From Dethiobacteria bacterium (GTDB lineage Bacteria; Bacillota; Dethiobacteria; DTU022; UBA8154), in contig JBMNEO010000001.1 in NCBI GenBank assembly GCA_050948825.1, positions 11,673 through 75,672 of the forward strand: a stretch of DNA of 64,000 nucleotides, written 5' to 3'. Shown here piece after piece: positions 6,557-27,828 of the stretch. The notes beneath the pieces were generated by a model that saw only the letters and a program-made list of their open reading frames with translations, was not told where the DNA came from and ran no database searches. Both the position numbers and the translations under genes were made by a program. Numbering within the stretch: the stretch's first letter is position 1; every line of letters starts with the position of its first letter.

Positions 6557-6865
6557 AGCGCCTCCCTCCCTTTCTGCTAAAATTTCAACCTAAATCCAAT
6601 GTCTATTTAATACCCAACCAATTAATACCTAACCAAGTTGGTTATATTATAATTTAGTTTTATTCCCTTGTCAAGTGTTTCCAGGACTATTTTAAAAATA
6701 AATAATAATAAATTGAGTGTCAGGAATTTTTCGCCAGACTACCGTCCTGGCTAATAACGTCCACCGGAATTAACTCGACCGGATCTTGACTATGGAATCA
6801 TCTTCCTGTAATATATATATATAACTAACTTGATTATATAACTATAAATGAAATCAGGTGCAACA

Positions 6866-7279
6866 ATGATCACCAAAAAAGCAGAGTATGCGATCATCGC
6901 CCTGGCTGATCTGGCTGTGCTGCCGCCCGATCAAAAAACAACGACACGGGAAATTGTCGCACGCCAGCAAATCCCACCCAACCTGCTCGCCCAGATTTTA
7001 CCCGTAATGCGTAAAGCAGGATGGATTAAAAGCACCCGGGGGGCCGGTGGAGGGATTTTTCTGTGCAAGGATCCCGCGCAGATCACTTTATGGGAAGTAA
7101 TCGAGCTGATTGACGGCCCTATAAAAATAACCCGCTGTCTGACACAAAGTATGCCCTGTGGAAACAAACCTTCCTGCCCTCTGAGGGATGTCTGGAAGGA
7201 AGCGCAAGAAAAAATGCTGCAGGTTTTTGAAGAAACCACCATTGGGGAGTTGGCTGCCAGAATAGCTGCTGCCGGATAA
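6866..7279 (+). CDS. Rrf2-family transcriptional regulator with three C-terminal Cys (likely Fe-S sensing, IscR/NsrR-like)
   Basis: MITKKAEYAIIALADLA..TTREIVARQQIPPNLLAQILPVMRKAGWIKSTRGAGGGIFL is the Rrf2 wHTH. CLTQSMPCGNKPSC supplies the three ligating Cys. An alternative ATG lies at 6848. Confidence 0.75.
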   Translation: MITKKAEYAIIALADLAVLPPDQKTTTREIVARQQIPPNLLAQILPVMRKAGWIKSTRGAGGGIFLCKDPAQITLWEVIELIDGPIKITRCLTQSMPCGNKPSCPLRDVWKEAQEKMLQVFEETTIGELAARIAAAG

Positions 7280-7731: not shown

Positions 7732-7986
7732 GTGAAGAAAATTACTACTGTTACAAAGAAGGGGCAGGTTACCATACCCAGAATGGTACGGGAAAAGCTG
7801 CAAATCAACTCCGGTGACAAGGTCGAGTTTACTTTTAACGAGCAGGGGCAGGTAGTTTTACAGCCGGTTAAAACCGACCTGAACAGTCTTTACGGAATTC
7901 TGGCAAAAGAAAGGCCGGAGCTGGATATTGAAGAACAGCGAAAAGCTGCCCGGGATTGGATCAGCAGTAAGAAAGGCAGGTCGTAA
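7732..7986 (+). CDS. vapB: AbrB/MazE-fold antitoxin (VapB-like), partner of the downstream PIN toxin
   Basis: MKKITTVTKKGQVTIPRMVREKLQINSGDKVEF is a SpoVT/AbrB looped-hinge helix. An acidic/charged tail follows. Confidence 0.7.
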   Translation: MKKITTVTKKGQVTIPRMVREKLQINSGDKVEFTFNEQGQVVLQPVKTDLNSLYGILAKERPELDIEEQRKAARDWISSKKGRS

Positions 7987-7999
7987 GAGGGTGTTTTTT

Positions 8000-8398
8000 G
8001 TGGATACAAATTTATTTATTCGCTTTCTCTCACGAGATGACGAAGAAAAAGCGGCCAAATGCAAAACCCTCTTTGAAAAGGCCCTGGCCGGCGGAGTAAA
8101 GCTCTTTACCTCTGAATTGGTAATCGCTGAGGTGGTATGGGTACTTCAATCCCCTAAAACATATAATCAAAAACCGGAGAGAATACGCGAATTGCTGCTG
8201 CCGCTTCTCACCATTAAAAACCTGAATTTCCCCAACAAAGAGCTCTACCCGGAGGTTTTTGAACTTTTTGCTTCTACTAATGTGGACTATATTGACGCCT
8301 ATAACGCCGTTTTAATGCAACAAAAAGGCATTTCCGATATTTATAGTTACGATATACATTTCGACTTAATCAATAATATCAACCGCCTGGAGCCATAA
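8000..8398 (+). CDS. vapC: PIN-domain ribonuclease toxin (VapC)
   Basis: ..FFVDTNLFIRFL..SELVIAEVVWVL..VDYIDAYNAV.. gives PIN acidic residues at the expected spacing. The start is ambiguous (GTG at 8000 or 7991, or ATG at 7928). 8000 is chosen because an AAGAGGG RBS sits 7-9 nt upstream. Confidence 0.65.
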   Translation: MDTNLFIRFLSRDDEEKAAKCKTLFEKALAGGVKLFTSELVIAEVVWVLQSPKTYNQKPERIRELLLPLLTIKNLNFPNKELYPEVFELFASTNVDYIDAYNAVLMQQKGISDIYSYDIHFDLINNINRLEP

Positions 8399-8491: not shown

Positions 8492-8524
8492 TTAAAAATC
8501 CCGCCCTGGAGTTTGCAGGGCGGG
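8492..8524 (-). terminator. Rho-independent terminator ending the TasA-like gene array (minus strand)
   Basis: The CCCGCCCTG-gagtttg-CAGGGCGGG hairpin is followed on the minus strand by AUUUUUAAUAU. Confidence 0.6.
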
Positions 8525-8678
8525 AACCGACTTGCATATTATTAATTTTCATAACCAAGAGGGCTGTTTATAAGAGCGCAGAGGATGTGCTATTTATGCC
8601 TCAAAAGGTTCTGGAAGTGCCTCTTTGTATGTTGTTATCTTTGCATGTGCCTTTTTGCTTATGCCTCCTGGCCCCTGT

Positions 8679-10313
8679 TTATTTAACTCTTCCACCTGAC
8701 CGCCTGGCACCCCTGGCCCTGGAGAGCGCTTTTCTCCGCAACGCAAGGCCGGCCAGCACCAGCAGGAGCCCGGCACCGTATAGTATCGCGGGAGGAAACT
8801 CACCGGTTTTCGGCGGTTCCGGAGGGATCTCCTCTTCGATCAACTGGCTGCTATCCCGGGGCGGGCTTTCAGGGCCTTCCGGAGGGACAATAATCTCTGT
8901 TTCCTGGTAATTGCCGAATATTACAGTTTCCCTGTCCCCTTCTTCCAGCGCAACCACAACTTCTGCCGGCGTCGCAGCCTCCCAGCCTTCCACAATTTCC
9001 TCCGTCAAGGTGTATTCACCGGGATCCAGCTCCAGCGTTAGCGGCGTGGTGTACTCTTCCCCGTTGATAAACACTTTCCAACCCGCGATCTGCTCTTCAT
9101 TATCATCCCAGACTCCGTCGGCATCGGCATCGTAGAACTTGTAAACGGCCAGTGATGCTTTCCCCGACGGTGGCGGCGGCGGTGGCGGCGATGGTGTCTC
9201 GTAATTGCCAAACAAGACCGTCTCCTGAGCTCCCGCTACCAGTGTTACGGTGTACTCTGTCGGAGTGCTCGCCCTCCATCCTTCGCGGGCCTCTTCACGG
9301 ACAGTGTAAGTTCCCGGTTCCAACTCCAGGGTTTGCGGAGTGCTGTACTCCTCATCATTGATGTATATGATCCAGCCTTCAATCTCCTCTTCACCATCGT
9401 CCCATATACCGTCGGCGTCGGCATCGTAGAACTTGTAAACGGCCAGTGATGCCTCTTCATCCCCCGGCGGTGGCGGCGGTGGCGGCGGCGGCGGCGATGA
9501 TACCCGGTAATTGCCGAATAAGACCGTCTTACTCTCCTCTGCTGCCAGCGTCACGGTATACTCCGTTTCGGTGCTCGCCCTCCATTCTTCGCGGGATCCC
9601 TCCCTGACGGTGTAGATCCCCGGTGCAAACTTCAGGGTTTGCGGTGTGCTGTACTGCTCATCATTAATGTATATTGTCCAACCTGTAATCTCCGGCTCAC
9701 CAGCGTCCCAAATCCCGTTGCGGTTATTGTCCCGGAACTTGCGCACCTCCAGCCCGGCATCCTCTTCCTGGGCAGGATCCGCACGGAATTTAAACTGCAC
9801 GGTGACATCGGCTCCCTGGTACTCGTTTCCCGTCTCCGGGCCGGAGAGATGGACCGAGATATCCAGCTGCTGGCTTTCGCCCCCGTTAAGGACGCCCATA
9901 TCCCGCCCCTTATCGCCAAATTGTTCCCTGAACTCGGCAACCAGGCCCTTAAAGAGCTCTTCTTCATTACGTTTTACGGTCATCTCCAGCTTCTCGTCCA
10001 GGTGTTTCCCGGCCTGCCCCCTGTAACTGCCGGCGCTGCTGCCGATCTTCTGAATATCGAAAAAGTACTTAAACGCACCGCTCCCCGTATTGGAGACGGT
10101 CAGGTATGAACCTTTTGTATCCCCCGGGGCGAGGTTGCTTACATCGGTATATTCATCCGCTACGTTGACCTCCAACCCGATTTCACTACCTTCCACCACG
10201 AAGGCGAAGGTGCTTCCCGCACCCGACATGATCAGGAGCGTTCCGCTTACAAACAATACCAGCAAAATCATGGCTATTGGGCTGATCAATTTCAACTTCT
10301 TAACGTTACTCAT
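8679..10313 (-). CDS. Cell-surface fibre protein: TasA/camelysin-like N-domain, three ~95-aa Cna-B/SdrD-B-like Ca-binding repeats separated by poly-Pro linkers, and a C-terminal (S/P)PxTG sortase sorting signal
   Basis: N-terminal signal peptide, then ..GNEYQGADVTVQFKF (camelysin-type YQG motif). Three repeats read ..VYKFYDADADGIWDDGEEEIEGW.IYINDEEYSTPQTLELEPGTYTVRE..GW.A..P.EYTVTL..VLFGNY. The linkers are PPPPPPPPPP and PSPPPPPPPS. The C-terminus is EPPKTGEFPP, a hydrophobic segment, then RRKALSRARGARR. Confidence 0.75.
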   Translation of the reverse strand: MSNVKKLKLISPIAMILLVLFVSGTLLIMSGAGSTFAFVVEGSEIGLEVNVADEYTDVSNLAPGDTKGSYLTVSNTGSGAFKYFFDIQKIGSSAGSYRGQAGKHLDEKLEMTVKRNEEELFKGLVAEFREQFGDKGRDMGVLNGGESQQLDISVHLSGPETGNEYQGADVTVQFKFRADPAQEEDAGLEVRKFRDNNRNGIWDAGEPEITGWTIYINDEQYSTPQTLKFAPGIYTVREGSREEWRASTETEYTVTLAAEESKTVLFGNYRVSSPPPPPPPPPPGDEEASLAVYKFYDADADGIWDDGEEEIEGWIIYINDEEYSTPQTLELEPGTYTVREEAREGWRASTPTEYTVTLVAGAQETVLFGNYETPSPPPPPPPSGKASLAVYKFYDADADGVWDDNEEQIAGWKVFINGEEYTTPLTLELDPGEYTLTEEIVEGWEAATPAEVVVALEEGDRETVIFGNYQETEIIVPPEGPESPPRDSSQLIEEEIPPEPPKTGEFPPAILYGAGLLLVLAGLALRRKALSRARGARRSGGRVK

Positions 10314-10647
10314 TCTTTACACCCTCCTCCGCGGGGCTTTCCTGCAAGGCAGAATAATATCCGGCTTTGCAGGAAACTAGCTTTTTTCCTTTATCTTTTG
10401 GTATGCGCCGGTTTCTCCAGCAACATCCCCCAAACGGTCTATTAAAACTACTCTGCGAGTAAGCTTGTTTTCAATTTCACAGAATCCATTTCTCAGGGAT
10501 GGAGTTCCTTTTTTACTAAACACACTCATTTGCTATTGGCAGGCAGGGAGTTTCCCTCCCGGCTCAATCCCTGCCTGCCCAAAACGCAAAATGTTGCTTT
10601 GATAAGAATTGAATTTATTTAACTATTTTATTTCACCTGATCTAATT

Positions 10648-11652
10648 TCACCTTGGTCTAGTTGTACCTGTATATACTCCCTCAATGGTTCTTTTAACAC
10701 CATCAATAACTACCGTTACTTTATAATAATTTCCGGACTCTATTGGATATTTTGGAGCATTAGTAATAAATTCAGCATTATTTTTGGTTCCATCTTTGAA
10801 TTCGACAAGCGCTGTTGCTGGCTGCTTTAGAATATCATCAAATTCATCATTAATTTTCTGTTGTATATTCAAAGTAACATCCTTTTTACCAGTGAATTCT
10901 TTTTCATAAACATCGATTACTTTGTAAATATCAACAGTACATTTGTAAGTTATATCTTTAGAATCCGCATTTGTTAATTTCTCAAATCGCCAGTTGGATA
11001 TTTCAAAGCTTTTTATCCCTTCCGTTTCTCCTTCACCAAAGGGGCACTTGTATTCAGGATACACGGCGCCTTCCTGCCACTGCCTCGCCAGTGCGATAAA
11101 GGCAGCCTTCAACTGAGAACCCTGGTATTCGTTGCCACTTTCTTCGCCTGGGAATTTAGCATAAATCTTATAAGTATATTCCTCGCCGGGTGCAAGCTTC
11201 ACTTCATAATTGTAATCCAACGGCTTTGGTTTACCTGCCAGGGTCCCTTGAGTTAATACTATATCCGGTTGATACTCCCCTTGTCCGGTAACTTTGAACT
11301 CTATTGCTTCCGACAATGGGTTGGTTCCGTATCCTTCACGGTCGCCAAAATATACATCGTCACGTTCAATACCCAGAATATCATCCCAGCAAATGACCAC
11401 CTTATGCACAAGATTCTTGGTCCCTTTATTCTCTACTATGATTTTCCACTCTTTCTCATCTCCGGGGTTGAGGTTATCCACGTCAAGTTCTTCGTAGGAA
11501 ATATCTTCGTGAAGATCGATGAGTAAAGTCCCCGCACTAAAGGTAACATCATCAGAAACGTCACTGTCTGTGAACCAGGCCATGGTCGCGCCGCCGATGA
11601 CGGCTGCCGCCAGGGCAAAAACCAACACTCCGATTAACATTTTACTTCTCAT
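10648..11652 (-). CDS. TasA/camelysin-family secreted protein with a SipW-cognate signal peptide
   Basis: MRSKMLIGVLVFALAAAVIGGATMAWFTDSDVSDDVTFSAGTLLIDL..NPGDEKEW..VENKGTKN..GNEYQGSQLKAAF. Confidence 0.75.
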   Translation of the reverse strand: MRSKMLIGVLVFALAAAVIGGATMAWFTDSDVSDDVTFSAGTLLIDLHEDISYEELDVDNLNPGDEKEWKIIVENKGTKNLVHKVVICWDDILGIERDDVYFGDREGYGTNPLSEAIEFKVTGQGEYQPDIVLTQGTLAGKPKPLDYNYEVKLAPGEEYTYKIYAKFPGEESGNEYQGSQLKAAFIALARQWQEGAVYPEYKCPFGEGETEGIKSFEISNWRFEKLTNADSKDITYKCTVDIYKVIDVYEKEFTGKKDVTLNIQQKINDEFDDILKQPATALVEFKDGTKNNAEFITNAPKYPIESGNYYKVTVVIDGVKRTIEGVYTGTTRPR

Positions 11653-11898
11653 GATATTTTTACCTCTCTAGTATTTTTAGAGTCCCTAAAGGCCTTCAAG
11701 TATACTGTATTTCTTATAATTGCTTATCCCTATATTTCAGCTATGTATCATTAATTGCTGTTGCCGGCGGGGCGGCCCGTTTATACCGGCTCGCCCCGCA
11801 GCATCATTGCTTTTTCCCGCCGTTCTTTATACTATTCGGCACTTTAAAGACTCCGGTGCATTTACGCACTTATTATGATTAAAAGTAATACTTGTTCT

Positions 11899-13113
11899 TT
11901 ACTCCGAAGGACTCCAGCTCCAGACTTCCTGGCTTGCATCGTGGGTGGTCTGGATGGCTTCCACACCAGCGTTAACTGTAAAGGCCTGGCCCTTATAATC
12001 ATTATCCGTTCCTGGGCCGTCCAGATGTACCTGCACGCAGAGCAGAGCTTCCTGGCCCGGCTCAAGTATGTGTTTGTAATAGAAATAGCCGTTATTATAT
12101 TCCCAGTCGTTCCCCACACCGCCACACAGTAAGAAGGACACGTTCTCACTGCTGAGGTCTTCAAGCCATTCGCCACTTACGCTTACCCGCACGTACTGAT
12201 TTTTTGTTCCTTTATTGCGGACATAATAACGAAGTATATCGCTATCGCCCGGGTTCCAGTTGTTTTGATAATTGGATGCCAGGTCGCCGAACATCTTATC
12301 GCACTCATAGAACCTCTCTATATCTCCGCTTGATACATCTACCGCATACCATTCCAAGTCCCTAGTAACGGTCCCGTAGAGCTCCCCATCGGCACCAAAA
12401 GCCAGCTGCAGGTTGACGGCATCAGCACCGAGAACCTCCTCATATTCACCTGTAGCAACGTTATAAGTGAAAAATTCCCCGCCAGATGAACCCGTGCCCG
12501 CCGTACTGCCGTAGATAATCCCGTCTTTCATATCTAAAGCAAGATCGCCAAAGCCAAACTGCATCTCAGCTTCCCCGGTGAAATTCTCATGTGCCAGAAT
12601 TACATCATCTATTGTCCCGTCAGGGTTAAAACTGACTTTGTAGAGATCATCGGTGCCTTCCTTGACAAACCAGTAGTATCCCAGGCCAAAGACAGCGTTA
12701 TAAAGCTTTGTATTTTCTTCAAAGATCTTTCCAGCAGATTTATCGCCTACACCGTCGGTAAAATCGTAGAAGTAAAGGTTGCTGTTGCCGTCAGCATAGT
12801 AAAGCTTTTTGTTTTTCCGGTCAAAAGCCAGGGCATTTAACCTTTTCTTATTGGAATCGTATAGTTTGGTATAGGTTACTATATTGCTATCCTTATCCAC
12901 AAATATCTCGTATAGAGTCCCGGGTTGATTCTCAGGATCTTTATACTCCACACCGTAGATCATCGAGGTGTTGGCCTCGACGAGCAGGGTGCCGGCGGCA
13001 AATTCAACCGGCCCGGAAACATCGCTGTCGGTAAACCAGGCCATGGTGGCCCCGCCGACCAGGGCGGCGACAAGGGCGATGGAAAGTGCGACTAGCATTA
13101 CTTTTTTGCTCAT
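11899..13113 (-). CDS. TasA/camelysin-family secreted protein (longer paralogue) with a SipW-cognate signal peptide
   Basis: MSKKVMLVALSIALVAALVGGATMAWFTDSDVSGPVEFAAGTLLVE.. ..RNKGTKNQYVRV.. ..DNDYKGQAFTVNAGVEAIQ. Confidence 0.7.
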   Translation of the reverse strand: MSKKVMLVALSIALVAALVGGATMAWFTDSDVSGPVEFAAGTLLVEANTSMIYGVEYKDPENQPGTLYEIFVDKDSNIVTYTKLYDSNKKRLNALAFDRKNKKLYYADGNSNLYFYDFTDGVGDKSAGKIFEENTKLYNAVFGLGYYWFVKEGTDDLYKVSFNPDGTIDDVILAHENFTGEAEMQFGFGDLALDMKDGIIYGSTAGTGSSGGEFFTYNVATGEYEEVLGADAVNLQLAFGADGELYGTVTRDLEWYAVDVSSGDIERFYECDKMFGDLASNYQNNWNPGDSDILRYYVRNKGTKNQYVRVSVSGEWLEDLSSENVSFLLCGGVGNDWEYNNGYFYYKHILEPGQEALLCVQVHLDGPGTDNDYKGQAFTVNAGVEAIQTTHDASQEVWSWSPSE

Positions 13114-13458
13114 TTATCTATTCCCTCCTTTCCCAACGTTTTCCAGAAAGTCAGCTCAATACCTCCGCCAGATTCCTGTATATGCCTTCAATAAATATCA
13201 TACTGCTAATAACATACCGCTTTTGTTTTTAAGGGGTGTAACCGGCGCCCGCCGGGCACACCGTGTTATTACTGAATTGTTCATTGTCATTCTCTCAGTT
13301 ATCTTTTACCACCCGGAAGAGTGGGCGTTCGGTTCCTTAACCCGCCACAATGCCGGGATGCTGGTGCGACAAGGGAGAATCCTCCCAAAGGGCACTCGAA
13401 GTCTTACTGCTTCCGACTTTATCCGGCTGCCAGGCTGTCTGGCAGCCGGATAGCCATC

Positions 13459-14151
13459 CTAGCTTGATGCTTCTGTCTCTCCAAAGGGGCACACGAAGTC
13501 ATCCGGCAGCTCGGGTGCGGGAGCGTTGTTGGTGGTCTGCCCAGCTATTACGCCGAAGACGAGATTGATTTTGGAGCCCTGATAATCGTTTCCGGTCCCC
13601 TCCCCGGGCAACGTGACTTCAACATCGTAAGTTAAAGACTCGCCGGGTGCCAGTTCAGCTAAACCAAACTTCAGGGGTTTTTGATCTTTGGGAAGTATGT
13701 CATTATAGAAAACGCTTTCTCCAAGATTAAAATCATCCCAGGTTGCGCCTCTGACCGAAATTTTGAAGTTTAATACATCGGAGAGACCCTTGTTGCCGTA
13801 GCCTTTATCAGCAAGCATTTGTGTCATGCCTGGATATTCATTATCAAGAGCATCGTTTAATTGGCCTTTGATATCTTCCCAGCAAAGGTAACCCATGAAC
13901 TGAAGGTTCTTTGAGCCTTCATTGACAACTACGAATGAACCCTTTTCCACATCGCCGGGGTTCATGTTATTAATTTCTAAATCTTCTTCTCCTTCAAGGT
14001 TGAGCTCATCAATGGCAATCAGCAGTGTCCCCGCGCTAAAGGTTACCTCATCCGAAACATCGCTGTCCGTGAACCAGGCCATGGTCGCGCCGCCGATAAC
14101 GGCTGCCGCCAGGGCGATAACCAACAAACTTACCAACATTCTGCTTTTCAT
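13459..14151 (-). CDS. TasA/camelysin-family secreted protein with a SipW-cognate signal peptide. First gene downstream of a c-di-GMP riboswitch.
   Basis: MKSRMLVSLLVIALAAAVIGGATMAWFTDSDVSDEVTFSAGTLLIAIDE..NPGDVEKGSFVVVNEGSKNLQF..GNDYQGSKINLVFGVIAGQ. A GGAGGG RBS precedes it. Confidence 0.75.
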   Translation of the reverse strand: MKSRMLVSLLVIALAAAVIGGATMAWFTDSDVSDEVTFSAGTLLIAIDELNLEGEEDLEINNMNPGDVEKGSFVVVNEGSKNLQFMGYLCWEDIKGQLNDALDNEYPGMTQMLADKGYGNKGLSDVLNFKISVRGATWDDFNLGESVFYNDILPKDQKPLKFGLAELAPGESLTYDVEVTLPGEGTGNDYQGSKINLVFGVIAGQTTNNAPAPELPDDFVCPFGETEASS

Positions 14152-14186
14152 TTTTTTCCCTCCATTAATTTTTTTTGGATTTTTTT

Positions 14187-14280
14187 AAACCCCATCTGGC
14201 GGCCAGGCTGCCATTCTATGGAAAGGCCCTGTGGCTTTGCGCCCCTGCCTTTCGGCAGGTTTGCCCTTTTCAGAAACCTG
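14187..14280 (-). promoter_or_regulatory. c-di-GMP-I (GEMM) riboswitch aptamer in the 5' leader of the TasA-like gene 13459..14151
   Basis: The minus strand reads GAAAAGGGCAAACCUGCCGAAAGGCAGGGGCGCAAAGCCACAGGGCC..GCCUGGCCGCCAGAUGGGG. It has the GEMM hallmarks: GGCAAACC, a GAAA tetraloop hairpin and GGGGCGCAAAGCC. It is paralogous to the elements at 48060..48180 and 50862..50966. Confidence 0.75.
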
Positions 14281-14395
14281 CACACTCTTCGTTTAAACAA
14301 GTCCACATCTTTTCCACTGCGTTTAGCGGGCATCACCCCTTTCAGGTTGATATATTTTAACAGGCGCCGATACGGCTTTTCCCTGCTGATTGCAT

Positions 14396-15401
14396 TTACT
14401 GTTCACCCGGCCAGTTCGGCCATATTTCCCTTGCTGCCCCGTGGGTAGCCTGCACGGACTCGGCTTTCAAGCTGGACGGTCGTAAGCTCCCGTCCGCAGA
14501 CTCTTCGTCCAGGCAGCCTCTCAGCACCAGCGTTACCTCTTCGCCGCTTCTTACCGGTTCGATGTAGTAGAACCAGCCGTCAGGAGGTTCGCCTTCTTCC
14601 CAGGGAGAGCCTTCCGGCAACGTCCAGTTAATTGTACCTTCCACCGTAGTTTCGGAACCTTTGGTAAGGCAGGAATGAACCGCTATTAATCCCGGCGGGA
14701 TGCCCGATGGGAAGTCCGATAGATCAATCTCATGGGTGTAGCTCTCCGCCAGGTAATGGTATTTCTTATAATCGAAATGGCCCGGTATGGGGTTATTGCC
14801 TTGCCGGCTAAAGGAAAACCATCTACTGTATCTGCAAGATGAACGTGAGAGTCGATCATCTTCCAGCCGTCTTTTGTTTGGAGCTCGACGTAAAGTTTCC
14901 CGCTTTCCTGCCATACCCTGACCGTTCCGGCATCGATATTTTGACCTGCCAGCAATCTTACCGTCTTTTCTAAACCGTCATATTCAAAATACATCGCCCA
15001 GTTGCCCTGCCGGCCCTCATTAAAGGGGGGACCCTCTCCCCAGGCGGTTTCATCCTTTTCAGGTAAACCCGGTGAAGGTATCCTTCGGGGCAGGCGCGGA
15101 AAAAGGCTGTCTTGGTGCCGGTGTTTTTAAAGGTCCAGCTCAGCTCCTTGCATTCACCGGCCATCCACGTTAAGGCTTGGCCTTCATTGTCACTTTCGCT
15201 TTCCTCGCCGCCTTCGGGCTCCCCGTCCCCTTCGGTAATCACGGAAGCATCCGTTACTTCAAACTCCAGGGTCCCCACGACCATCTCCGCTGCGGAAGGA
15301 ATGGTATAGTCGTCGGTAAACCAGGCCATCGTTGTCCCGGCGACAACAAGAACGGTAACGAGGGAGATAACGATCAGGCTCCTTACGGCACTTATTTTCA
15401 T
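14396..15401 (-). pseudogene. TasA/camelysin-family gene split by at least two frameshifts into three overlapping ORFs
   Basis: The N-piece (14970..15401) has the TTMAWFTDDY signal peptide and ..TFKNTGTKTAFF... The C-piece (14396..14914) ends ..GWFYYIEPV..VQATHGAAREIWPNWPGEQ, which aligns with the C-terminus of 11899..13113 (..GYFYYKHILEP..IQTTHDASQEVWSWSPSE). The three pieces are in three different frames. Confidence 0.6.
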
Positions 15402-16201
15402 GGGTTCTTACATCCTTTCTCCTCGGAGAGAGGGCTGCTCTCCTTTTTTTTCTTTGCCGCTTTTTCCGCTTCCCACTCCGCAGCGTAGCGGAAAAGGTTG
15501 CGCAGTTCAAAGATGATGATCAGGACTCCCGGAATCATTACCAGGGAGATTATCCCGGTTTTGCTCTGGCCGAAATCCATCAGGTATCCGGCGTAAGGAA
15601 CGGCATGCTCGACCCTGCCGACGACCTTGTCCGCCATGACGGGGTTCTGATCGTTCACGTCGTTGGCGTCTCCGCGGGTGATGAAGCTGAGACCGCCGTC
15701 GCGGTTGACCTGCACCACGCGGTGGGTGGTCAGCGCCCCTTCACCGGAGGAGGGGCGGAAGGTGATGATATCACCCTCGACGATGTTCTCCGGGTTTTCA
15801 GGCTTGAGAAGGATCAGGCTGCCGGCGTCAAAGGCCGGGCTCATGCTGCCGCTGAGAACGATATACATCTGGTAGCCGAACACCCGGGGCGCGCCGCCGC
15901 CGGAGAGCCTGCTCTGCACCATGGAGTAGACCAGGACCACCATGATGATCAGGATACAGGCAAAAACGATATTCTCCACCAGGTTGAAGGCTTTTTTCAG
16001 GCCGCTCTGCCGCTTTTTGCCCTTTGCGACGGTTTCCGCCTCTGCTGTGCTGCTGCAGGCGGCTGTCTGCTCTTCCTGAAAATCCGTTTCCCGGGAGTGC
16101 GTTTCAGCAAGGTTTTTTTCTGCAGTTGTTGGAGAAATATTGCTGTTAAGTTCTTCTCCCATTTCCGGTTTGCCCCCTTTAAGGCTATATTGTTTCGGCA
16201 T
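15398..16201 (-). CDS. sipW: Signal peptidase I, archaeal/SipW type (S26B), with an acidic N-terminal extension and a C-terminal TM anchor
   Basis: ..VLSGSMSPAFDAGSLILLKPENPENIVEGDIITFRPSSGEGALTTHRVVQV..FITRGDANDVNDQNPV.. matches the SipW Ser/His core and the GDAN motif. It lies inside the TasA-like cluster. Confidence 0.8.
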   Translation of the reverse strand: MPKQYSLKGGKPEMGEELNSNISPTTAEKNLAETHSRETDFQEEQTAACSSTAEAETVAKGKKRQSGLKKAFNLVENIVFACILIIMVVLVYSMVQSRLSGGGAPRVFGYQMYIVLSGSMSPAFDAGSLILLKPENPENIVEGDIITFRPSSGEGALTTHRVVQVNRDGGLSFITRGDANDVNDQNPVMADKVVGRVEHAVPYAGYLMDFGQSKTGIISLVMIPGVLIIIFELRNLFRYAAEWEAEKAAKKKKESSPLSEEKGCKNP

Positions 16202-16227
16202 CCGTTATCGGCATCCATGAAACTAAT

Positions 16228-18726
16228 CTATTTGTCCGGGTTGTTATTTTCTTCCTCGTCTTTGCCGGCGGTGCTGTCGGTTAGATCTTCATCTTCATCT
16301 TCACCGTCGCCGGTAATTTCTTCTTCGCCGTTATTAACGTCATTGTTGCCTTCATCATCTTCATTATCGCTATTATCGTCAGCAGCATCAGCACCATCAG
16401 CACCATCAGCACCATCAGCACCATCAGCGCTATCTTTATCGTCATCGATCACGCCGCCGCTTCCGTCAGCATCACCGTTGTTCTCATCATCGTCGTTATC
16501 TTCTTCTTCTTCATCTTCGTTATTACTGTCGCCGCCATCATCTTCTTCTGCAGGCGGTTCTTCCAGGGCGGGAGGTTCTTCTTCCTTCCCGGGAGGAGTC
16601 TCATCTTCTTCACCGCTGTCTCCTCCACCGTTTTCGTCTCCGTTATTTCCTTCCCCGTCGTTTTCGCCCTCGCCCTCTGCGGGGGGTACAGGCTCTTCAG
16701 CGGCCGGATCGGTTGGAGCCGGCAAGGCGAGGTTGACTTTTAGCTCGCCGGTGAGGAGAGTACTATTCTGCTCCGCCGCTTCTTTATCTTCTTCATCTTC
16801 CAGAGCCACTGTTATTTCTTCGTCTCCCTGGCAAGATACCAGTATGACGATCTCTCCTTCTGCGGAGCTGGAATCTACGGTCAGCTCGCCGTTTTCTGTC
16901 AGGCTGACCCCTTCATGCTCCTGCTGGAGCCGGAAGAGGGCATTTTGCAGAGGCTGCCGGTTGTTATCCAGGGCCGTGTAGGTAACGTTTATGGCCTCTT
17001 CCCCGGCGGGGATGAGGATGAGCGTTTCGCCCTCGATAATAAGGCGCTCTTCCCCTGCAGGGGGGCTCTCAATTTTTTCTTCTTCCCGCTCTTCCCGGGC
17101 CGGTGCTTCCAGTGTAACCGAAAGGCTTCCGCTGATCCCCGGGTCGCGCACGGAGGTGGCCAGCACCGTTATATTTCCGGAGGCAGCGTGCTGTTCCACG
17201 GTTAGAATCCCTTCTGCGTCAAGGGATATGCCGCTGCCGGCTGCGCTTTCCAGGCTCCAGGTTACCGGTTCGTTTTCAAGGACGGTTCCTTCCGCGTCAA
17301 GGACGAGTGCCCGGTAGTACTGCCGGAGGGGTTCCCCTTCGGGGATGACCATCGTTTCGGTGCCGGTTACCTCTACCGCCCCGATCCGGATGGTATGCAG
17401 CAGGATTTCTTTTTCCTGGCTAAGGGGGTTGCCCACGCCAGCAAATTCAAGCCGGGCGGCCAGGGTAAAGGATTCCGCCGCGGCATCGCTTGTAACGCTT
17501 ACAAGCCCTGTTTCGTCTGCGCAGATGCCGTTTGTCTCTTCCGGCAGTTCCCAGGTGACGCCGGTCAGCGTGAGCCCTGCGGGAGGTTCAACCGTGTACT
17601 GCTCCAGGGCGGTTTCTCCCGGGAGGGGGATGGTGATGGTATCCGCGCCGGTAATAATGGATGCGGGCTTTTCATACAGCGCTATTGTTTTCTGTGACGC
17701 CAGGATTCTTCCTTCGAGTTCGATGGCGGCCAGGATGGTCACGTAGCCGGGGGCCGCATTTGAATATACGGTCAGCGCTCCTGTTTCGCAGTCTATTTCC
17801 ACGCCTTCCAGCACTTCCGGGGCAGCAGGGGTTTCAAGAGCCCACCTGGCTCCTTCGAGTAAAGCCCCGTCCTGGTTTTCCAAAAGGTATGTTTTTACGA
17901 TTGTTTCACCGGGATCCGGGATGAAGAAGGCATCGGGGCCGGTGATGGCGGTTTCTTTTGTTTCGTAGCTGCCTTTTAATTTAATCGTTGCTTCGCCTGC
18001 AAAGAGGAAACGGTCCAGCCCGCCGGCGTAGCCTTCGCCGGATATGCCGAAGGTAACCAGCTCCATCGCCTCGCCCGTCTCTTCGAACCAGGCGGCAAGT
18101 TCTTCGCGGTCAAAATCGACAACCAGCGTTCCGTCTTCGTTTAGCTCACCGGAAAGGGCAAATGTTGAGTTCTCGTTGTAGTGCAGCTCGACAGAGGGGA
18201 CGTAGATCTCTCCGGGATCGAAGCCGTCTTCCAGCCGGATCTCGGCCTGGACTCTGTCTTCGCCGGAGAGCTTTTCTTCAATGCTTTCCAGGTCTGCTCC
18301 GAAGAGGGCACCCAGGGAACCGGTACTCAGGCCGGCTGCGTTCAGGCTGCGGCTGCGGTTAAGACCGGTGCCGGGGTTTGAGGAAGGGTTCTCGCTGCCT
18401 GCCGCAAAACCCATAAGCATCATTTCGCCGCCGCCCGGGGTGCCTATGCCGCCCAGTGTGCCTGCGCTGCCGGGACTGCTTGTACCGTCCGTATCTGATT
18501 CGCTTCCGCTTTCTTCATTTTCTTCGATGAGGAATTTATCGACAAAGAAAACATTGGCTTTTGTCTTGCCGTCAGCTTTTACAATGGTGAAGGTCAGCAC
18601 TTCGGACTCCGCGCCGGCCGTAAAGTAGGCATAGGTCACGGGAAGCTTCACGATGGAGCAAAGCATGACAAGTATTGTAAAGATCGCCGCTGTCTGCATA
18701 ATGTTTTTCTTAATCCTGGCTTTCAT
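16228..18726 (-). CDS. Large (~830 aa) secreted protein: SipW-cognate-like signal peptide (..VTYAYFTAGAESEV..), several Big_2/Ig-like repeats, and a very acidic low-complexity C-terminal tail
   Basis: The start is set at MKARIKKNIMQTAAIFTILVMLCSIVKLPVTYAYFTAG, with a GAGGAGG RBS 7 nt upstream. The ORF track extends it to 18810. Repeated ~80-aa segments (..TGALTVYSNAAPGYVTILAAIE.., ..GILTVEQHAASGNITVLATS..) follow. The tail is ..DADGSGG..DGADGADGADGADAADDNSDNEDDE.. Confidence 0.65.
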   Translation of the reverse strand: MKARIKKNIMQTAAIFTILVMLCSIVKLPVTYAYFTAGAESEVLTFTIVKADGKTKANVFFVDKFLIEENEESGSESDTDGTSSPGSAGTLGGIGTPGGGEMMLMGFAAGSENPSSNPGTGLNRSRSLNAAGLSTGSLGALFGADLESIEEKLSGEDRVQAEIRLEDGFDPGEIYVPSVELHYNENSTFALSGELNEDGTLVVDFDREELAAWFEETGEAMELVTFGISGEGYAGGLDRFLFAGEATIKLKGSYETKETAITGPDAFFIPDPGETIVKTYLLENQDGALLEGARWALETPAAPEVLEGVEIDCETGALTVYSNAAPGYVTILAAIELEGRILASQKTIALYEKPASIITGADTITIPLPGETALEQYTVEPPAGLTLTGVTWELPEETNGICADETGLVSVTSDAAAESFTLAARLEFAGVGNPLSQEKEILLHTIRIGAVEVTGTETMVIPEGEPLRQYYRALVLDAEGTVLENEPVTWSLESAAGSGISLDAEGILTVEQHAASGNITVLATSVRDPGISGSLSVTLEAPAREEREEEKIESPPAGEERLIIEGETLILIPAGEEAINVTYTALDNNRQPLQNALFRLQQEHEGVSLTENGELTVDSSSAEGEIVILVSCQGDEEITVALEDEEDKEAAEQNSTLLTGELKVNLALPAPTDPAAEEPVPPAEGEGENDGEGNNGDENGGGDSGEEDETPPGKEEEPPALEEPPAEEDDGGDSNNEDEEEEDNDDDENNGDADGSGGVIDDDKDSADGADGADGADGADAADDNSDNEDDEGNNDVNNGEEEITGDGEDEDEDLTDSTAGKDEEENNNPDK

Positions 18727-18890
18727 GATCTTCCTCCTCATCTTTCTTTGCCGGTAAAGACGCAGGCGTTGTTGTAGTTTGGTCAACGGTAATCCCTTCC
18801 TTGATTTCAACTATATTAAACTTACACTTATTCAGCGCGGGCAACATCCTTTTATAGGATTATTTTTCAGTATTAAATTGGATAATTTTA

Positions 18891-18923: not shown

Positions 18924-19529
18924 TCAACCTGACAGCGCATAAAAAGGTTCTTCAAACTCCACTCCGTAGCTGTACTGCCATTCGTCGTGGTCCCCTGTTG
19001 CAAGAAGGTGCTCTCTCACCACTTTTCCCTTCATGCCGGTGGAGATCTCCCTTTCCCTGTTCAGGGATATTTCGAAAAAAAGCTGAAGTTCACCCATCAA
19101 CTCGAGGGGGGTTTTTACCATCAGAAGCGCCCCGCCCCTCGATATGTTTAGGATTTTGGCCTGCTTGAAGCTATTCACGTCTACTTTCTCGGACAGCAGG
19201 ACGTACTCCGCCCTGTAATTGACAGGGATCCGCCCGGATTTTCTGCGCTGCCAGCGCTGTTCCTCACCCAGTTGCTTGAGGATGCAGGCGCCTCCGTCCA
19301 GTACTTCCAGCACGGTCGCACGGATTATATAGAGCGCGTCCTCCCGCTGAGGGGCTTCCAGAGTAATTTCGTCACCGGGATATAAACTCAGAACCGACAT
19401 GATTGCCAGCGAGAATTCCTTTTCACCTGCGGTCACTGCGGTCATTATTACTGCATCACCTGATGTATTCTTTTTTCTGTCAATGATCTTGACCTCGTTG
19501 CCGGGTTTTAAGAGCATCCGGAGTATCAC
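18924..19529 (-). CDS. PilZ-domain c-di-GMP-binding protein (YcgR-like two-domain architecture)
   Basis: 201 aa. The RxxxR motif (QRRKSGRIP) and the (D/N)xSxxG motif (ILNISRGGALL) are present at the canonical spacing. Confidence 0.65.
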   Translation of the reverse strand: MILRMLLKPGNEVKIIDRKKNTSGDAVIMTAVTAGEKEFSLAIMSVLSLYPGDEITLEAPQREDALYIIRATVLEVLDGGACILKQLGEEQRWQRRKSGRIPVNYRAEYVLLSEKVDVNSFKQAKILNISRGGALLMVKTPLELMGELQLFFEISLNREREISTGMKGKVVREHLLATGDHDEWQYSYGVEFEEPFYALSG

Positions 19530-19554: not shown

Positions 19555-21714
19555 CTAATGCAGCATTTCTTCAAGCAGTTCTTCCTTATTCATAAGTCCT
19601 AGCAGCGCCCTTCCCATCTTCGCCACAGTATCTGCCTTTGGGATCCAGGACGGTTCAAGCTCAAGCTGGGGATTTTTGCTCAATTCAAGTGCTGCAATAT
19701 CATCCTTTGCGGATACAATTTTTTCTTTGGTCATGATTATTCTTTCCAGAGTATCTATAGCCCGCCTGCATATGGAAATTCCTGCAGAAACCGGGCTTTC
19801 ATCCCCGTATTTCACAGCCAATTTCTCCAGCTCGTCTCTGGCAGTTAGCATATGGTGGCGCAGTTCGCTTTTGCGGGGAGAATCTGTTTCACTTTTTTTC
19901 TCGATCTTCTCGTGGAGTGTTATCCAGCGCCCCGCAAGTTTAACAGCTTCTTTAAGCCGGGACAGCGCCTGCCAGGAACCGGAAATATGGAAAATATCAG
20001 TGCAATCCTCCCCTTGAATATTGGAGTAGACTTTTGCCAGTTCTTTTTTCAGGTTGTCCTCTTCCTGCAGGTATTCTACAAGCTCTCGGACTCCATCCAG
20101 GAGCTTTTCATTGTTAGACTTAACCGGATCTAACAGCCTGTAAGCCAGGCCTTTTTCATCTTTCAGGAGCTTCTCCCACAGCTTCGATGCGAGCGGGGAT
20201 GCGGGGCTGAGCTTCTGATTGCGTTTTTGCCAGCTTTGTGCTTCATAGGATAAAATCCGGAATTTCTTGTCCCAAACACTGCCGCCTGTGTTATGCTGGG
20301 CCGCAAGGGTTGCGGATATTTTACTGAAGCCGCTGAGTCCCGGGGGGAGATCATTAAGCTGCCCGATCAGTTGCAGGGCACCGCTTCCGGGGGCGATGAA
20401 AGCCGGCTTCAGCAAAGAGGCATACATCAGCAGTGCCAGGGACAATTTTCTTTCTTCTATCGGCTCCTTTTCAAGTAACGTTACAAAATCATGGTTTTTA
20501 TAGATATATGAAAGCCAGGTTCCGGCCGGGCCGCCGTCACCTTCGATAATTTCGGCCAGTTCGGCAGCTTGTAATAGCCTGGAGGGAAAGGGGGCATCTC
20601 CGTATTGCTGCTCGGAATAACAGGAAAGCCAGTAGGCAGGGCCAAGCTTACCTTCCTTTATGAGTTGAATTATTTGCCCGGAGAGCTTGCTGCTATAGCC
20701 GGGGCAGAGGCCGGTGTCGGGATTGGGGCCGGGGCTAGCGCCGGCAATAATACTGGAAATGGGCCCGTGCCTCTGGTGCTCCCGGCCGCCGGCGCCGGCA
20801 GATGGTTTTGTTTCCGCTGCGATGTACTCCTCTGCTGCTGCTTCTGCTTCTATTACTTCTGTTTCTGCTTCTGCTTCTATTACTTCTGTTTCTGCTTCTG
20901 CTTCTATTACTTCTGTTTCTGCTTCTGCTTCTGTTGTCTCTGCTTCAGTTGCTGCTGCAGCTTTTTCCGCCGCCTGCAACTCTGCCTCCGTCGCGGGCTG
21001 CTCCGTTTCCACTGTTTCTTCCTGTTCAGCTGTTTCTTCCTGCAACTGAACGCCCTCCTCATTGTCGCTGCTTTCGTCTTGCTGAAAAAGCAAACTCTTC
21101 CTTGCTGCTGCCACGGAAAGAAGGATTCCAAATTCCCCGGCAGCTGCCTGAAATAATCCGGCTGCCTCTTCATGATCCGGTCGCTCTTCAGCAAGCTTTA
21201 AAAGAGCGTTTAACGGGTGAACCCCTGCGGCAAGCCGGTTGCGTAATTTGGCCGTTTCCGTATTTTCCGGATCTCCAGAAAGGATCGCTTCATAATGGGT
21301 GAGCTTGTCCCTGAAACGATCCAATTCGGCAAGAGATTCCTTACCCGTCAAACTCATTTTCTTGCACTTTTTAATAATTGCCTGTACCCGCCGGTTTTGC
21401 TCCTCCAGCATGCTTAAATAAACCAGGTGGTCAGCAAGGCTGTGCCAGATTTTCTCTATTTTGGCATATGCATTGTTTCCTTCGGTGATCTTTGGCAGTA
21501 TTAAATCATCTGCTCCCCTGTCATAATCTTCAGAGAGCAACTTGAATACGTCCAGTTGATTGGCGACATCCTGTTGAGAAAGATGTTCCGGCGGTAAATC
21601 GGGTTTTTTCGGGCTTTCCCCTTCCTCTACCAACCTGATGCCCAGTTTTTTAAATCTTTCTATCAGCTCTGTTATCTGCAAATGTAACTTATCCAGCCGC
21701 TTTTCCCGATCCAT
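19555..21714 (-). CDS. Large (719 aa) hypothetical cytoplasmic protein: helical N- and C-terminal regions around an acidic low-complexity core with a 9-aa tandem repeat (ETEVIEAEA x3)
   Basis: ORF track. There is no signal peptide and I recognise no catalytic motif. A 27-bp nucleotide tandem repeat lies at ~20838..20932. It sits immediately upstream of the PilZ gene with a 26-nt gap, so it is likely an operon. Confidence 0.5.
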   Translation of the reverse strand: MDREKRLDKLHLQITELIERFKKLGIRLVEEGESPKKPDLPPEHLSQQDVANQLDVFKLLSEDYDRGADDLILPKITEGNNAYAKIEKIWHSLADHLVYLSMLEEQNRRVQAIIKKCKKMSLTGKESLAELDRFRDKLTHYEAILSGDPENTETAKLRNRLAAGVHPLNALLKLAEERPDHEEAAGLFQAAAGEFGILLSVAAARKSLLFQQDESSDNEEGVQLQEETAEQEETVETEQPATEAELQAAEKAAAATEAETTEAEAETEVIEAEAETEVIEAEAETEVIEAEAAAEEYIAAETKPSAGAGGREHQRHGPISSIIAGASPGPNPDTGLCPGYSSKLSGQIIQLIKEGKLGPAYWLSCYSEQQYGDAPFPSRLLQAAELAEIIEGDGGPAGTWLSYIYKNHDFVTLLEKEPIEERKLSLALLMYASLLKPAFIAPGSGALQLIGQLNDLPPGLSGFSKISATLAAQHNTGGSVWDKKFRILSYEAQSWQKRNQKLSPASPLASKLWEKLLKDEKGLAYRLLDPVKSNNEKLLDGVRELVEYLQEEDNLKKELAKVYSNIQGEDCTDIFHISGSWQALSRLKEAVKLAGRWITLHEKIEKKSETDSPRKSELRHHMLTARDELEKLAVKYGDESPVSAGISICRRAIDTLERIIMTKEKIVSAKDDIAALELSKNPQLELEPSWIPKADTVAKMGRALLGLMNKEELLEEMLH

Positions 21715-21927: not shown

Positions 21928-22004
21928 TGGGATAAAAAAAGAACAGGTAACCTGTCCTTATACTTCTTTCTTGAACAAGGCAGGAATCCTGTCCTATTAT
22001 AGTT

Positions 22005-22661
22005 TTATCTGGCTTGCACGATTAGGCGGTTTACCGGATTTACACTGTAAAGAGGGTGACAGGTATAAAGCGTAAGTATCCTGTCACCCTCTTCAAATTC
22101 AAATATGGAAGTGTCGTCCACTTCGACTATTATTGTTCTGTATACTACATAGTGATATTGTTTATCATCTTCAGTGCTGATGGTTATGCTGTCACCGGCC
22201 TCCAGCTCGTCAAGCCGGTTAAAAAAACGCCCGTAGGTATGGCTTCTGTGAGCAGTAAGCACCGTATTCCCCACTTCACCAATCCCGGCTGTCCCCTCCA
22301 GAAGCCCGGCTCCAATTCTGAGAATAGCTTCGCTCGTTCCGCTCAGGATAGGGAGTTTAAGATTAATTTTTTCTATCTCCAAAATCCCCAGGGTATTCCG
22401 GAGTATTGTATCATTTTCACTGCCCTCTGCTTCACTGCTTTCTACCGAGTTTATGTCATTTTCGTTTTCCTCGAAGCCGGCTTCTGTTTCAACCCGTTCC
22501 TTAATGGTGTCTTTCTCCGCGTGCGTATCTTCCCGCAAATGCTCCGCTTCCCACTCGTTAAATATCTTTTGCTGCCAGTACCAGGTATACGCCCTGTCGA
22601 GCAACGGGTAGAGCAGAACCAAAACACCGGTTATGATTAATATTAAGGATAATCTTCTCAT
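22005..22661 (-). CDS. Sortase (transpeptidase) with an N-terminal membrane anchor
   Basis: ..NTVLTAHRSHTY.. (catalytic His), ..ILTLYTCHP.. (TLxTC Cys) and ..VNRLIVQAR (Arg). It overlaps the upstream substrate gene by 4 nt. Confidence 0.75.
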   Translation of the reverse strand: MRRLSLILIITGVLVLLYPLLDRAYTWYWQQKIFNEWEAEHLREDTHAEKDTIKERVETEAGFEENENDINSVESSEAEGSENDTILRNTLGILEIEKINLKLPILSGTSEAILRIGAGLLEGTAGIGEVGNTVLTAHRSHTYGRFFNRLDELEAGDSITISTEDDKQYHYVVYRTIIVEVDDTSIFEFEEGDRILTLYTCHPLYSVNPVNRLIVQAR

Positions 22662-23536: not shown

Positions 23537-23551
23537 CTGTATTATGCCCCT

Positions 23552-25364: not shown

Positions 25365-25385
25365 CGCCGGCCTTCCCCAGCCTCC

Positions 25386-27771: not shown

Positions 27772-27828
27772 ATAACGCAGGGAAATCCTCTGCCTTCCTG
27801 TTTCATAAATCTTTCTTTTCCTTAATAT

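Follow-up and report, generated by a model that had tools for sequence, protein, structure and literature searches.

A TasA/camelysin-like gene array with a SipW-type signal peptidase and a putatively sortase-anchored TasA-fold protein in a Dethiobacteria bacterium

How TasA-type matrix fibers stay on Gram-positive cells is still unsettled. The only experimentally studied tethers that we found in the literature are TapA in Bacillus and a membrane tether in Clostridium perfringens strain 13. Most C. perfringens strains carry a bsaB-like gene with an LPXTG motif adjoining srtB, the operons of BsaA/TasA family genes often also encode sortases, LPXTG proteins, and signal peptidases, and the LPXTG-bearing BsaB together with SrtB has been speculated to be the wall anchor of BsaA fibers, for which the published model has new subunits added at the membrane-proximal end (PMC11580942). 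Bacterial TasA-superfamily loci also contain LPXTG anchors, sortases, enzymes of cyclic di-GMP (c-di-GMP), and two-component systems, and in a Clostridium locus AlphaFold 3 (AF3) predicts donor-strand complementation of an LPXTG anchor with fiber subunits (bioRxiv 10.64898/2026.01.04.697558). In tafi, TafF has been modeled as a basal anchor and terminator (PMC11821415). We analyzed a 64,000-nucleotide stretch of a Dethiobacteria bacterium genome (GenBank assembly GCA_050948825.1, contig JBMNEO010000001.1, positions 11,673 to 75,672 of the forward strand; hereafter, the window), in which an array of TasA/camelysin-like genes with a SipW-type signal peptidase ends in a gene for a TasA-like protein bearing a sortase sorting signal. 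An earlier reading of the letters, referred to here as the original prediction, had found this combination unfamiliar. Two preprints (2024-2026; PMC11580942 and bioRxiv 10.64898/2026.01.04.697558) already describe it from genome neighborhoods, and the anchored-TasA combination is thus already recognized, in silico only.

An open reading frame (ORF) check of the window confirmed the coordinates given in the original prediction and placed all genes of interest on the minus strand, to which the coordinates below refer unless marked (+). In order of transcription, the upstream part of the locus encodes a LuxR-type regulator, a long signal peptidase, a 178-amino-acid (aa) protein, a 292-aa substrate, and a sortase. 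The downstream part encodes a 719-aa protein, a PilZ protein, a large protein of 832/860 aa, SipW, a frameshifted TasA-like protein, three intact TasA-like proteins, and, as the last gene of the array, a 544-aa protein (8679-10313) called the chimera here. With slightly more confidence than doubt, we propose that 8.5 to 21.7 kb of the window is one operon for a TasA-superfamily fiber assembled by donor-strand exchange and that the chimera, fixed to the wall by a sortase, tethers this fiber. The SipW-type peptidase would mature several secreted TasA/camelysin-like subunits, which would polymerize as their N-terminal strands insert into neighboring subunits. The large protein encoded upstream of sipW, with the T-x-A-Y-F-T N terminus of the subunits, would probably be the tip or nucleator, like TapA of Bacillus subtilis. 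The last gene would supply a divergent TasA-fold subunit, with polyproline and three Ca-binding SdrD_B repeats as its stalk, ending in a PPKTGE signal that the sortase encoded at 22005-22661 would cleave to join the chimera to peptidoglycan. The wall-fixed chimera would accept or donate a strand and so tether, and probably terminate, the fiber at the cell wall. Production would be linked to cyclic-dinucleotide signaling by the PilZ protein and by a riboswitch that precedes the gene of the probable major subunit, and the same sortase would also serve the 292-aa substrate of an adjacent tafi-like module. Of this scheme, the analysis demonstrates the homologies, the domain layout, the sorting signals, the gene order kept among relatives, and the match to the riboswitch model; polymerization, the peptidase acting on the anchor, attachment to the wall, the growth direction of the fiber, and the ligand and polarity of the riboswitch are inferred.

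At the core of the original prediction stood an expanded TasA/camelysin array with a SipW-type peptidase, and both are supported by family models. The peptidase (15398-16201; two predicted transmembrane [TM] helices) is a SipW-type signal peptidase I of the archaeal/endoplasmic reticulum (ER) type, S26B, scoring 125.5 bits against TIGR02228 (cutoff, 51.85). Three intact paralogues exceed the thresholds of both Peptidase_M73 (Pfam PF12389; gathering threshold, 22.5 bits) and TIGR04088 (19 bits): a 230-aa protein encoded by the first gene after the riboswitch (13459-14151; 47.0 and 34.8 bits, respectively), a 404-aa protein whose N-terminal strand and core are set apart by a large insertion (11899-13113; 29.5 and 32.6 bits), and a 334-aa protein with an extra C-terminal domain (10648-11652; 48.5 and 31.4 bits). 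The 230-aa paralogue is the probable major fiber subunit. The Peptidase_M73 matches cover mostly the N-terminal 55 to 85 residues, and all three proteins carry the signal (I/V)GGATMAWFTDSDVS. Paralogy within the window was assessed by phmmer searches among its 396 ORFs, and the intact paralogues proved mutually related at E values of 1e-51 to 1e-16. A fourth paralogue (14396-15401) is spread over three reading frames by two frameshifts; it carries VVAGTTMAWFTDD, and its N terminus, scanned alone, just reaches the TIGR04088 cutoff (19.1 bits). Since its orthologues in three related loci (L003, L005, and L009) are intact single ORFs of ∼323 aa that match all three frames, the window copy is either a pseudogene or an assembly error. 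The five or six paralogues with near-identical signal peptides that had been expected thus come down to three intact genes and one frameshifted gene, and all of them lie downstream of SipW rather than surrounding it.

The array resembles tapA-sipW-tasA of B. subtilis, where an accessory gene also lies upstream of a SipW-type peptidase and is followed by the TasA family; the T-x-A-aromatic-F signal ends and the jelly-roll fold are likewise shared, and donor-strand exchange is expected. The differences are that the window has four or five paralogues, whereas Bacillus has one, that the proposed anchor is a stalked TasA-fold sortase substrate and not TapA, that a riboswitch and PilZ would take the place of SinR in control, and that the window peptidase falls below the cutoff of the Bacillus SipW equivalog (NF046067, 154.9 versus 190 bits). 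The C. perfringens arrangement, srtB/sipW-bsaA-bsaB(LPXTG)-bsaC, is similar in combining SipW and several TasA-family paralogues, one of which has an LPXTG motif and is encoded beside the sortase gene (PMC11580942, PMC7395162). In contrast to that system, the window anchor has SdrD_B stalk repeats, the models tried do not place the window sortase in class B, and the window paralogues fall short of the BsaA model (TIGR04090; threshold, 60 bits), the best score being 20.1 bits for the 334-aa paralogue.

The head of the chimera, together with its signal peptide, occupies aa 1 to 185 (nucleotides [nt] 9759-10313). The original prediction had staked its TasA assignment on a Peptidase_M73/TasA match for this N-domain, and that expectation held only in part. 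The full-length chimera has no Peptidase_M73 match, and the head scanned alone (aa 1 to 190) scores 19.0 bits (E = 1.4e-3), below the threshold, in an alignment spanning profile positions 43 to 193 of 196. Three independent comparisons nevertheless establish the homology. When the head and five close homologues were compared by hhalign with a profile of 230/334-aa-type paralogues, the two aligned over 166 columns (98.9%, E = 1.4e-17). A head profile search of a library of 1.84 billion proteins yielded 867 representatives, and of the 148 proteins scanned further (147 of the best profile matches and the chimera), 56 match Peptidase_M73 at an E value of ≤1e-3; the LPXTG-bearing relatives P0099, P0119, and P0093 exceed the Pfam cutoff. 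An AlphaFold 2 (AF2) model of the head (pLDDT, 74; pTM, 0.67) has as its top Foldseek match in the Protein Data Bank (PDB) chain 8aur_A, the cryo-electron microscopy structure of the TasA fiber (E = 2e-5; TMq, 0.45). The weaker matches to monomeric TasA (5of1_B) and to an archaeal bundling pilus (7ueg_A), at E values of 2 to 3e-3, are in the same range as those to unrelated beta-sandwich folds. Sequence searches of the PDB with the chimera head profile and with the 230-aa paralogue returned nothing useful. Taken from the profile alignment, the family scan, and the structure match, the N-domain of the chimera is homologous to the TasA family and is predicted to have the TasA fold.

The N terminus of the chimera, SGAGSTFAFVVEG, is unlike the signal of the paralogues. 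A SipW-type signal peptide had been ascribed to it; the segment (SGAGSTFA/FVVEG) has no TIGR04088 match even at an E value of ≤10, and only 1 of the 148 scanned proteins matches that model. Because the signal peptide fails the SipW-type model, SipW is no more than a putative processing enzyme for the chimera; the BsaA model couples that step to strand exchange. The hhalign alignment sets the chimera's GAGSTFAF opposite the paralogues' GGATMAWF, and by this alignment the chimera N terminus is a divergent homologue of the SipW-type end. An N-terminal GL.V.V strand is kept across the head family.

Behind the head, the chimera consists of a stalk and a sorting signal, both much as originally described. 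Three 86-aa repeats (aa 186 to 271, 288 to 373, and 386 to 471; nt 9501-9758, 9195-9452, and 8901-9158) are 45 to 67% identical to one another, are separated by polyproline linkers, and jointly match Pfam SdrD_B (38.1 bits; cutoff, 29.7). Their DADADG loops fit the DxDxDG pattern by which the B domains of SdrD are known to bind Ca. An SdrD_B stalk is common to the window chimera, loci L004, L006, and L009, and protein P0008. The last 45 residues (nt 8682-8816) hold PPKTGEFPP, ∼20 hydrophobic residues forming a TM segment, and the basic tail RRK, and the last 70 aa score 20.2 bits against the sorting-signal model TIGR01167 (cutoff, 15.9). NF053819 (the EF2685/EF0750 sortase-dependent surface protein) was rejected as a family name: it matches 46 of the 148 scanned proteins, always below its cutoff and over the proline-rich stalk and anchor only.

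The window encodes a single sortase (22005-22661; 218 aa) with one N-terminal TM helix and TAHR, TLYTCHP, and R motifs. Credible sorting signals, for which a called gene had to encode xPxTG with a hydrophobic stretch and then a basic tail behind it, are confined within the window to the chimera and the 292-aa protein encoded next to the sortase (22658-23536). As had been predicted, this second substrate ends in the same TGEFPP signal: PPQTGEFPP is followed by ∼20 hydrophobic residues and KRR (TIGR01167, 23.8 bits versus the cutoff of 15.9). The two signals are alike as protein, and their DNA is only ∼70% identical over 76 nt, which argues for shared selection rather than recent copying; recent gene conversion between them was considered and rejected, as the DNA bears no sign of it.

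The sortase had been called C. difficile SrtB-like and its motif (S/P)PxTG, and neither label can be kept. The closest models are those of classes C and D, all scoring below their cutoffs: class C (NF033745), 127.2 bits versus 160; SrtD (the LPxTATN-specific class D enzyme), 96.5 bits; class E, 92.0 bits; and class D, 81.2 bits. No class B model of NCBIfam matched at the report limit of E ≤ 0.01, and no PDB chain named as class B was found at E ≤ 0.001. By score, the top 10 PDB chains are sortases named as class C or left unclassified (E = 3e-16 to 5e-12), with class A appearing from an E value of 8e-12. The likeness to C. difficile SrtB and its (S/P)PxTG substrates is the Pro at motif position 1; among the chimera relatives, L, P, A, M, S, and I all occur there, so the resemblance comes down to a Pro in two proteins. 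The window enzyme differs further in not being class B and in that its motif and those of the relatives always have Glu after the Gly. PxTG followed by Glu, often with x-P-P, is the commonest form among the relatives, and by these sequences the motif is an LPXTG derivative that is best written xPxTGE. Among 154 proteins (the seven matches of the first search and the profile matches), 78 end in an LPXTG-like motif by a strict regular expression that misses M, A, and S at the first position. Many Bacilli-type relatives of the head (P0094, P0098, P0099, P0107, P0128, and others) instead end in LPNTA or LPDTA and match the LPxTATN sorting-signal model; TasA-fold proteins thus appear from their C termini also to be substrates of class D sortases.

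Whether the chimera and the sortase belong together was evaluated from related loci. Close relatives of the chimera head are few (seven matches), and the exact chimera product has no recorded gene in the contig collection. In relatives of 280 to 300 aa, the head is followed by a Pro/Glu stalk, (L/P)PKTGE, a TM segment, and a basic tail. Two genomes are nearest, a Dethiobacteria metagenome-assembled genome (MAG) and an anaerobic-digester Bacillota MAG, with 91% identity in the head. In a biogas-reactor MAG, the chimera orthologue is directly followed by a sortase that is 49% identical to that of the window. A scan of one genome per Genome Taxonomy Database (GTDB) species yielded 32 loci, which were annotated by phmmer against the window proteins. 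The order large protein, SipW, two to five TasA-like genes, anchored TasA-like gene, and sortase, or large parts thereof, recurs across the Bacillota, including Clostridia, Syntrophomonadaceae, Oscillospiraceae, Thermoclostridium, Tepidanaerobacter, and Alkaliphilus; a Fictibacillus locus shows the order without recognizable TasA-like paralogues in between. A recognizable sorting signal was present in 23 of the 29 loci with a chimera-type ORF; the remaining six comprise four that are truncated where the contig ends or a misassembly is likely and two that went uninspected. In total, the sortase gene immediately follows the anchored gene in 12 of the 25 loci with enough downstream sequence, and a SipW homologue is present in the same locus in 15, upstream of the anchored gene in 13 and downstream in 2.

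In the window, 11.7 kb separate the chimera and sortase genes. The claim that the chimera is anchored by a sortase encoded 12 kb away is nevertheless credible as to the pairing, given the 49%-identical sortase adjoining an orthologue and the adjacency in 12/25 loci; the SrtB-like class assigned to the enzyme did not survive. Close loci also differ in where the sortase lies: it is 3′ of the chimera orthologue in the contig behind L005/L035 and 3′ of the 292-aa or 178-aa protein in the window, L003, L036, and L037. This pattern indicates that the sortase moved between its two substrates within the lineage, which supports one enzyme serving both.

Irregularities were noted in several of these contigs. 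In the closest MAG, the chimera orthologue (L003, 3600-6383) breaks off within its first repeat, where it overlaps the large-protein gene in an inverted copy; the probable cause is a misassembly, or else repetitive acidic or proline-rich sequence has undergone an inversion. In L036 (JGI 3300053716), a 95% related contig, the signal peptidase, sortase, and 719-aa genes are each split by frameshifts, and an insertion sequence (DDE_Tnp_1) and a PIN/VapB pair follow; this contig is either an error-prone assembly or a decaying locus. In two Syntrophomonadaceae MAGs (L024, 12852-15050; L026, 11941-14031), the SipW homologue lies in an ORF of ∼700 aa downstream of the anchored gene, which may be a peptidase fused to an accessory domain, as reported for DUF5305 fusions.

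Several observations weigh against a sortase-tethered fiber. There is no experimental evidence that any TasA-like protein is sortase anchored or that such an anchor joins a fiber, and deletion of srtB in C. perfringens strain 13, a strain without the LPXTG gene, left BsaA polymers unaffected (PMC7395162). Within the window, the sortase gene does not adjoin that of the chimera, and the frameshifted paralogue may mean that the system has partly decayed. As for the chimera itself, the head remains below the Peptidase_M73 threshold, its structure model is of only moderate quality (pLDDT of 74, TM score of 0.45 to TasA), and its N terminus escapes TIGR04088. The difference from the secreted paralogues in N-terminal strand and signal peptide would also suit a chimera that is a stand-alone wall-anchored surface protein or adhesin, using its TasA-like jelly roll as a binding head outside the fiber of its neighbors. 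SdrD_B repeats are typical stalks of monomeric adhesins of the MSCRAMM type, and two loci, L001 and L037, have the substrate and the sortase with no TasA array within the available sequence. On such a reading, it is hard to explain without a functional link why the anchored gene ends SipW/TasA-like arrays in many distant Bacillota. The conservation of the GL.V.V strand across the family also speaks for participation in a fiber, as do the AF3 models in the AbpX preprint, which predict coassembly for an analogous anchor. We therefore regard an independent adhesin as unlikely, although it is the alternative that survives best.

A tethering chimera might still stand at the other end of assembly. 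In the BsaA model, subunits add membrane-proximally, and a wall-fixed subunit would accordingly act as terminator and anchor, like TafF or a basal pilin. The opposite polarity, in which the anchored protein is a nucleator that donates its N-terminal strand to the first subunit so that the fiber grows outward as from a wall-bound TapA, draws on the part played by TapA, which gives TasA its first donor strand (as cited in PMC11821415), and on the chimera retaining the conserved N-terminal strand past its predicted cleavage site. The tapA position in the window is, however, held by the large secreted protein (16228-18726 for 832 aa from the ATG at 18726, or 16228-18810 for 860 aa), which mimics the N terminus of the subunits better than the chimera does, and membrane-proximal growth fits a basal terminator. 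A nucleating anchor is accordingly quite improbable in our view.

By its position relative to sipW, the large protein is itself a candidate tip or nucleator. Its sequence features are a TYAYFT motif at the N terminus, weak Ig-like matches, and an acidic tail. The tail described in the original prediction is evident, with 41% Asp plus Glu in the last 200 residues, whereas the AYFTAG-type signal peptide has no model support: the N terminus (TYAYFTAG) does not match TIGR04088 even at an E value of ≤10. A T-x-A-[YF]-F-T motif is nonetheless conserved in its orthologues and common to TasA-like subunits, with weak BLAST support (E = 0.015). Orthologues lie directly upstream of SipW in L005, L009, L011, and L012; L003 has an orthologue, with no SipW1 on that contig.

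Two further readings concern the enzymes. A class C-like sortase could polymerize both substrates into a covalent sortase pilus, independent of TasA-type assembly, and the best NCBIfam and PDB matches of the enzyme are indeed class C pilus sortases. Its score falls short of the class C cutoff (127 versus 160), however, and it is without a C-terminal TM helix; the only Pro-Lys of the chimera is that of PPKTG, the 292-aa substrate has none, and neither protein has a YPKN-type pilin motif; and the locus holds this one sortase with no housekeeping partner. A sortase pilus is thus very improbable. The paralogues as camelysin-type (M73) metalloproteases rather than structural fiber proteins, a reading suggested by the Pfam name Peptidase_M73, is rejected as extremely improbable, since HExxH is absent from all four proteins and the solved TasA structures nearest to the chimera head model are fiber and scaffold proteins.

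The tethered fiber that we favor would be under cyclic-dinucleotide control. A c-di-GMP-I-GGC riboswitch aptamer (RF03167) at 14194-14274 matches the model over its full length (positions 1 to 80; 68.0 bits versus a gathering threshold of 59; E = 2e-14) and leaves a gap of 43 nt to the start codon of the 230-aa paralogue. The GGC aptamer was found in 14 of 21 related loci (L003, L005, L009, L010, L011, L012, L014, L015, L021, L022, L024, L025, L027, and L028), in each of them directly preceding a TasA-like gene within the array; with a canonical c-di-GMP-I aptamer at that position in three more, the clan is represented in 17/21. In the accessible literature, we found no description of the ligand of the GGC variant or of its association with a TasA-like gene, and c-di-GMP is our default assumption for the ligand. 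In the minimum-free-energy fold, CCUUUCCAU in the aptamer possibly pairs with AUGGAGGG in the ribosome-binding region, a predicted pairing that hints at translational control. Surface proteins of C. difficile are likewise linked to c-di-GMP riboswitches.

A PilZ-domain protein (18924-19529; PilZ, 33.2 bits), kept in the relatives' loci, is a candidate c-di-GMP receptor, and the riboswitch together with the conserved PilZ gene ties the fiber to cyclic-dinucleotide signaling. Beside it lies the gene for the 719-aa protein (19555-21714), which has an acidic ETEVIEAEA repeat and neither a family match, a signal peptide, nor a predicted TM helix; the two genes are neighbors in a relative too. PilZ and 719-aa genes accompany the locus in relatives (L005/L035, L003, and L037), with their order swapped between the window and L005; the 719-aa gene was undetected in L003 and is unannotated in L037.

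Upstream of the fiber operon, the segment at 22005-31696 resembles bacterial AbpX-like loci and archaeal tafi-like clusters (bioRxiv 10.64898/2026.01.04.697558; PMC11821415). By gene inventory, the likeness of the 22.0- to 31.7-kb region extends to a signal peptidase I with extra TM helices, DUF5305, small subunits of the DUF1102 type, a two-component system, c-di-GMP links, and, as in bacteria, an LPXTG anchor with a sortase. It differs in standing beside a classical SipW/Peptidase_M73 array, with both apparently sharing one sortase. The second SipW-like signal peptidase (24273-25364; 363 aa) has approximately five predicted TM helices and an extracytoplasmic insert and scores 68.7 bits against TIGR02228 (cutoff, 51.85) and 39.2 bits against NF046067 (cutoff, 190); by these models, both peptidases are archaeal-type signal peptidase I and neither is the Bacillus SipW equivalog. 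Further upstream are genes for a LuxR-type response regulator (25386-26033), a HisKA_3 histidine kinase (26284-27771), and a DUF5305 protein (27829-28998; 63.9 bits versus 29), a family proposed as a signal-peptidase accessory in tafi/AbpX-like loci (PMC11821415; bioRxiv 10.64898/2026.01.04.697558).

The inventory includes three paralogous DUF1102-type subunits. A secreted 178-aa protein (23552-24088), a candidate subunit of this second module, is a paralogue of both the DUF1102 family ORF (31193-31696; 29 bits versus 22.2; E = 2e-6) and a secreted 314-aa protein with a Gly/Asp/Thr-rich tail (28995-29939; E = 1e-7). The DUF1102 ORF begins exactly at the predicted cleavage-site motif, an in-frame stop separating it from an upstream signal-peptide-like start, MRKVGIMVIVVSAWR (31193-31770); the stop is either a nonsense mutation, a sequencing error, or a site of read-through. 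The surrounding region (30 to 32 kb) has a low GC content (0.36). The 292-aa substrate would be the anchor of the second module. The sole hint linking it to DUF1102 proteins is a phmmer match at an E value of 6e-4; the AF2 model of this substrate is poor (pLDDT, 50) and gave no Foldseek match at E ≤ 1e-3. Going beyond the tethered fiber, and with more doubt than conviction, we raise the possibility that one dedicated xPxTGE-specific sortase anchors two evolutionarily distinct donor-strand fiber systems, the SipW/TasA-camelysin array and the tafi-like module, each with its own stalked anchor, and that throughout the Bacillota the GGC riboswitch is dedicated to regulating the gene of the major TasA-type subunit. 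If true, a regulon could be assigned to the GGC variant class, and its ligand would become easier to approach.

The boundaries of the operon were estimated from terminator-like hairpins, both identified by consensus match only. One, at 8499-8525, lies directly 3′ of the chimera gene and has 10 pairs, 8 of them GC, followed by a T run; it is probably the end of the operon. The other (21939-21959) lies 3′ of the sortase gene, and the two hairpins together suggest two transcription units in the locus. Past the operon terminator are a small AbrB/VapB-like ORF and a PIN-domain gene forming a toxin-antitoxin pair (7732-8398, +) and an Rrf2 regulator gene (6848-7279, +).

Elsewhere in the window, another GGC-variant riboswitch (48065-48177) lies upstream of a gene for a T2SSE-type pilus ATPase (45861-48101), which is clustered with genes for RcpC/CpaB and a prepilin peptidase. 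A canonical c-di-GMP-I riboswitch (50873-50965) precedes genes for a transglutaminase-like protein and then an EAL-HDOD protein, and a response regulator-HD protein and a PAS/GAF histidine kinase are encoded just upstream. Overall, the window gives the impression of an island of surface-structure genes controlled by cyclic dinucleotides.

The features described here are real and the layout is widespread in the Firmicutes; the locus is a good example of a known arrangement, not a new kind of system. The window stands out by its SdrD_B stalk, by a sortase that has been relocated and has two substrates, and by the riboswitch within the operon. Its interest is moderate and lies in the clean experiments that it offers on the tethering and regulation of TasA-type fibers. 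The locus and its relatives predict a TasA-fold subunit covalently fixed to peptidoglycan by a dedicated sortase, tethering the fiber. The conserved riboswitch inside the operon further predicts that a cyclic dinucleotide switches the major subunit along with the anchor. Because the host, an uncultured member of the class Dethiobacteria, is related to genomes from biogas reactors and anaerobic digesters, the practical value of the locus would be as a model for cell aggregation in such communities.

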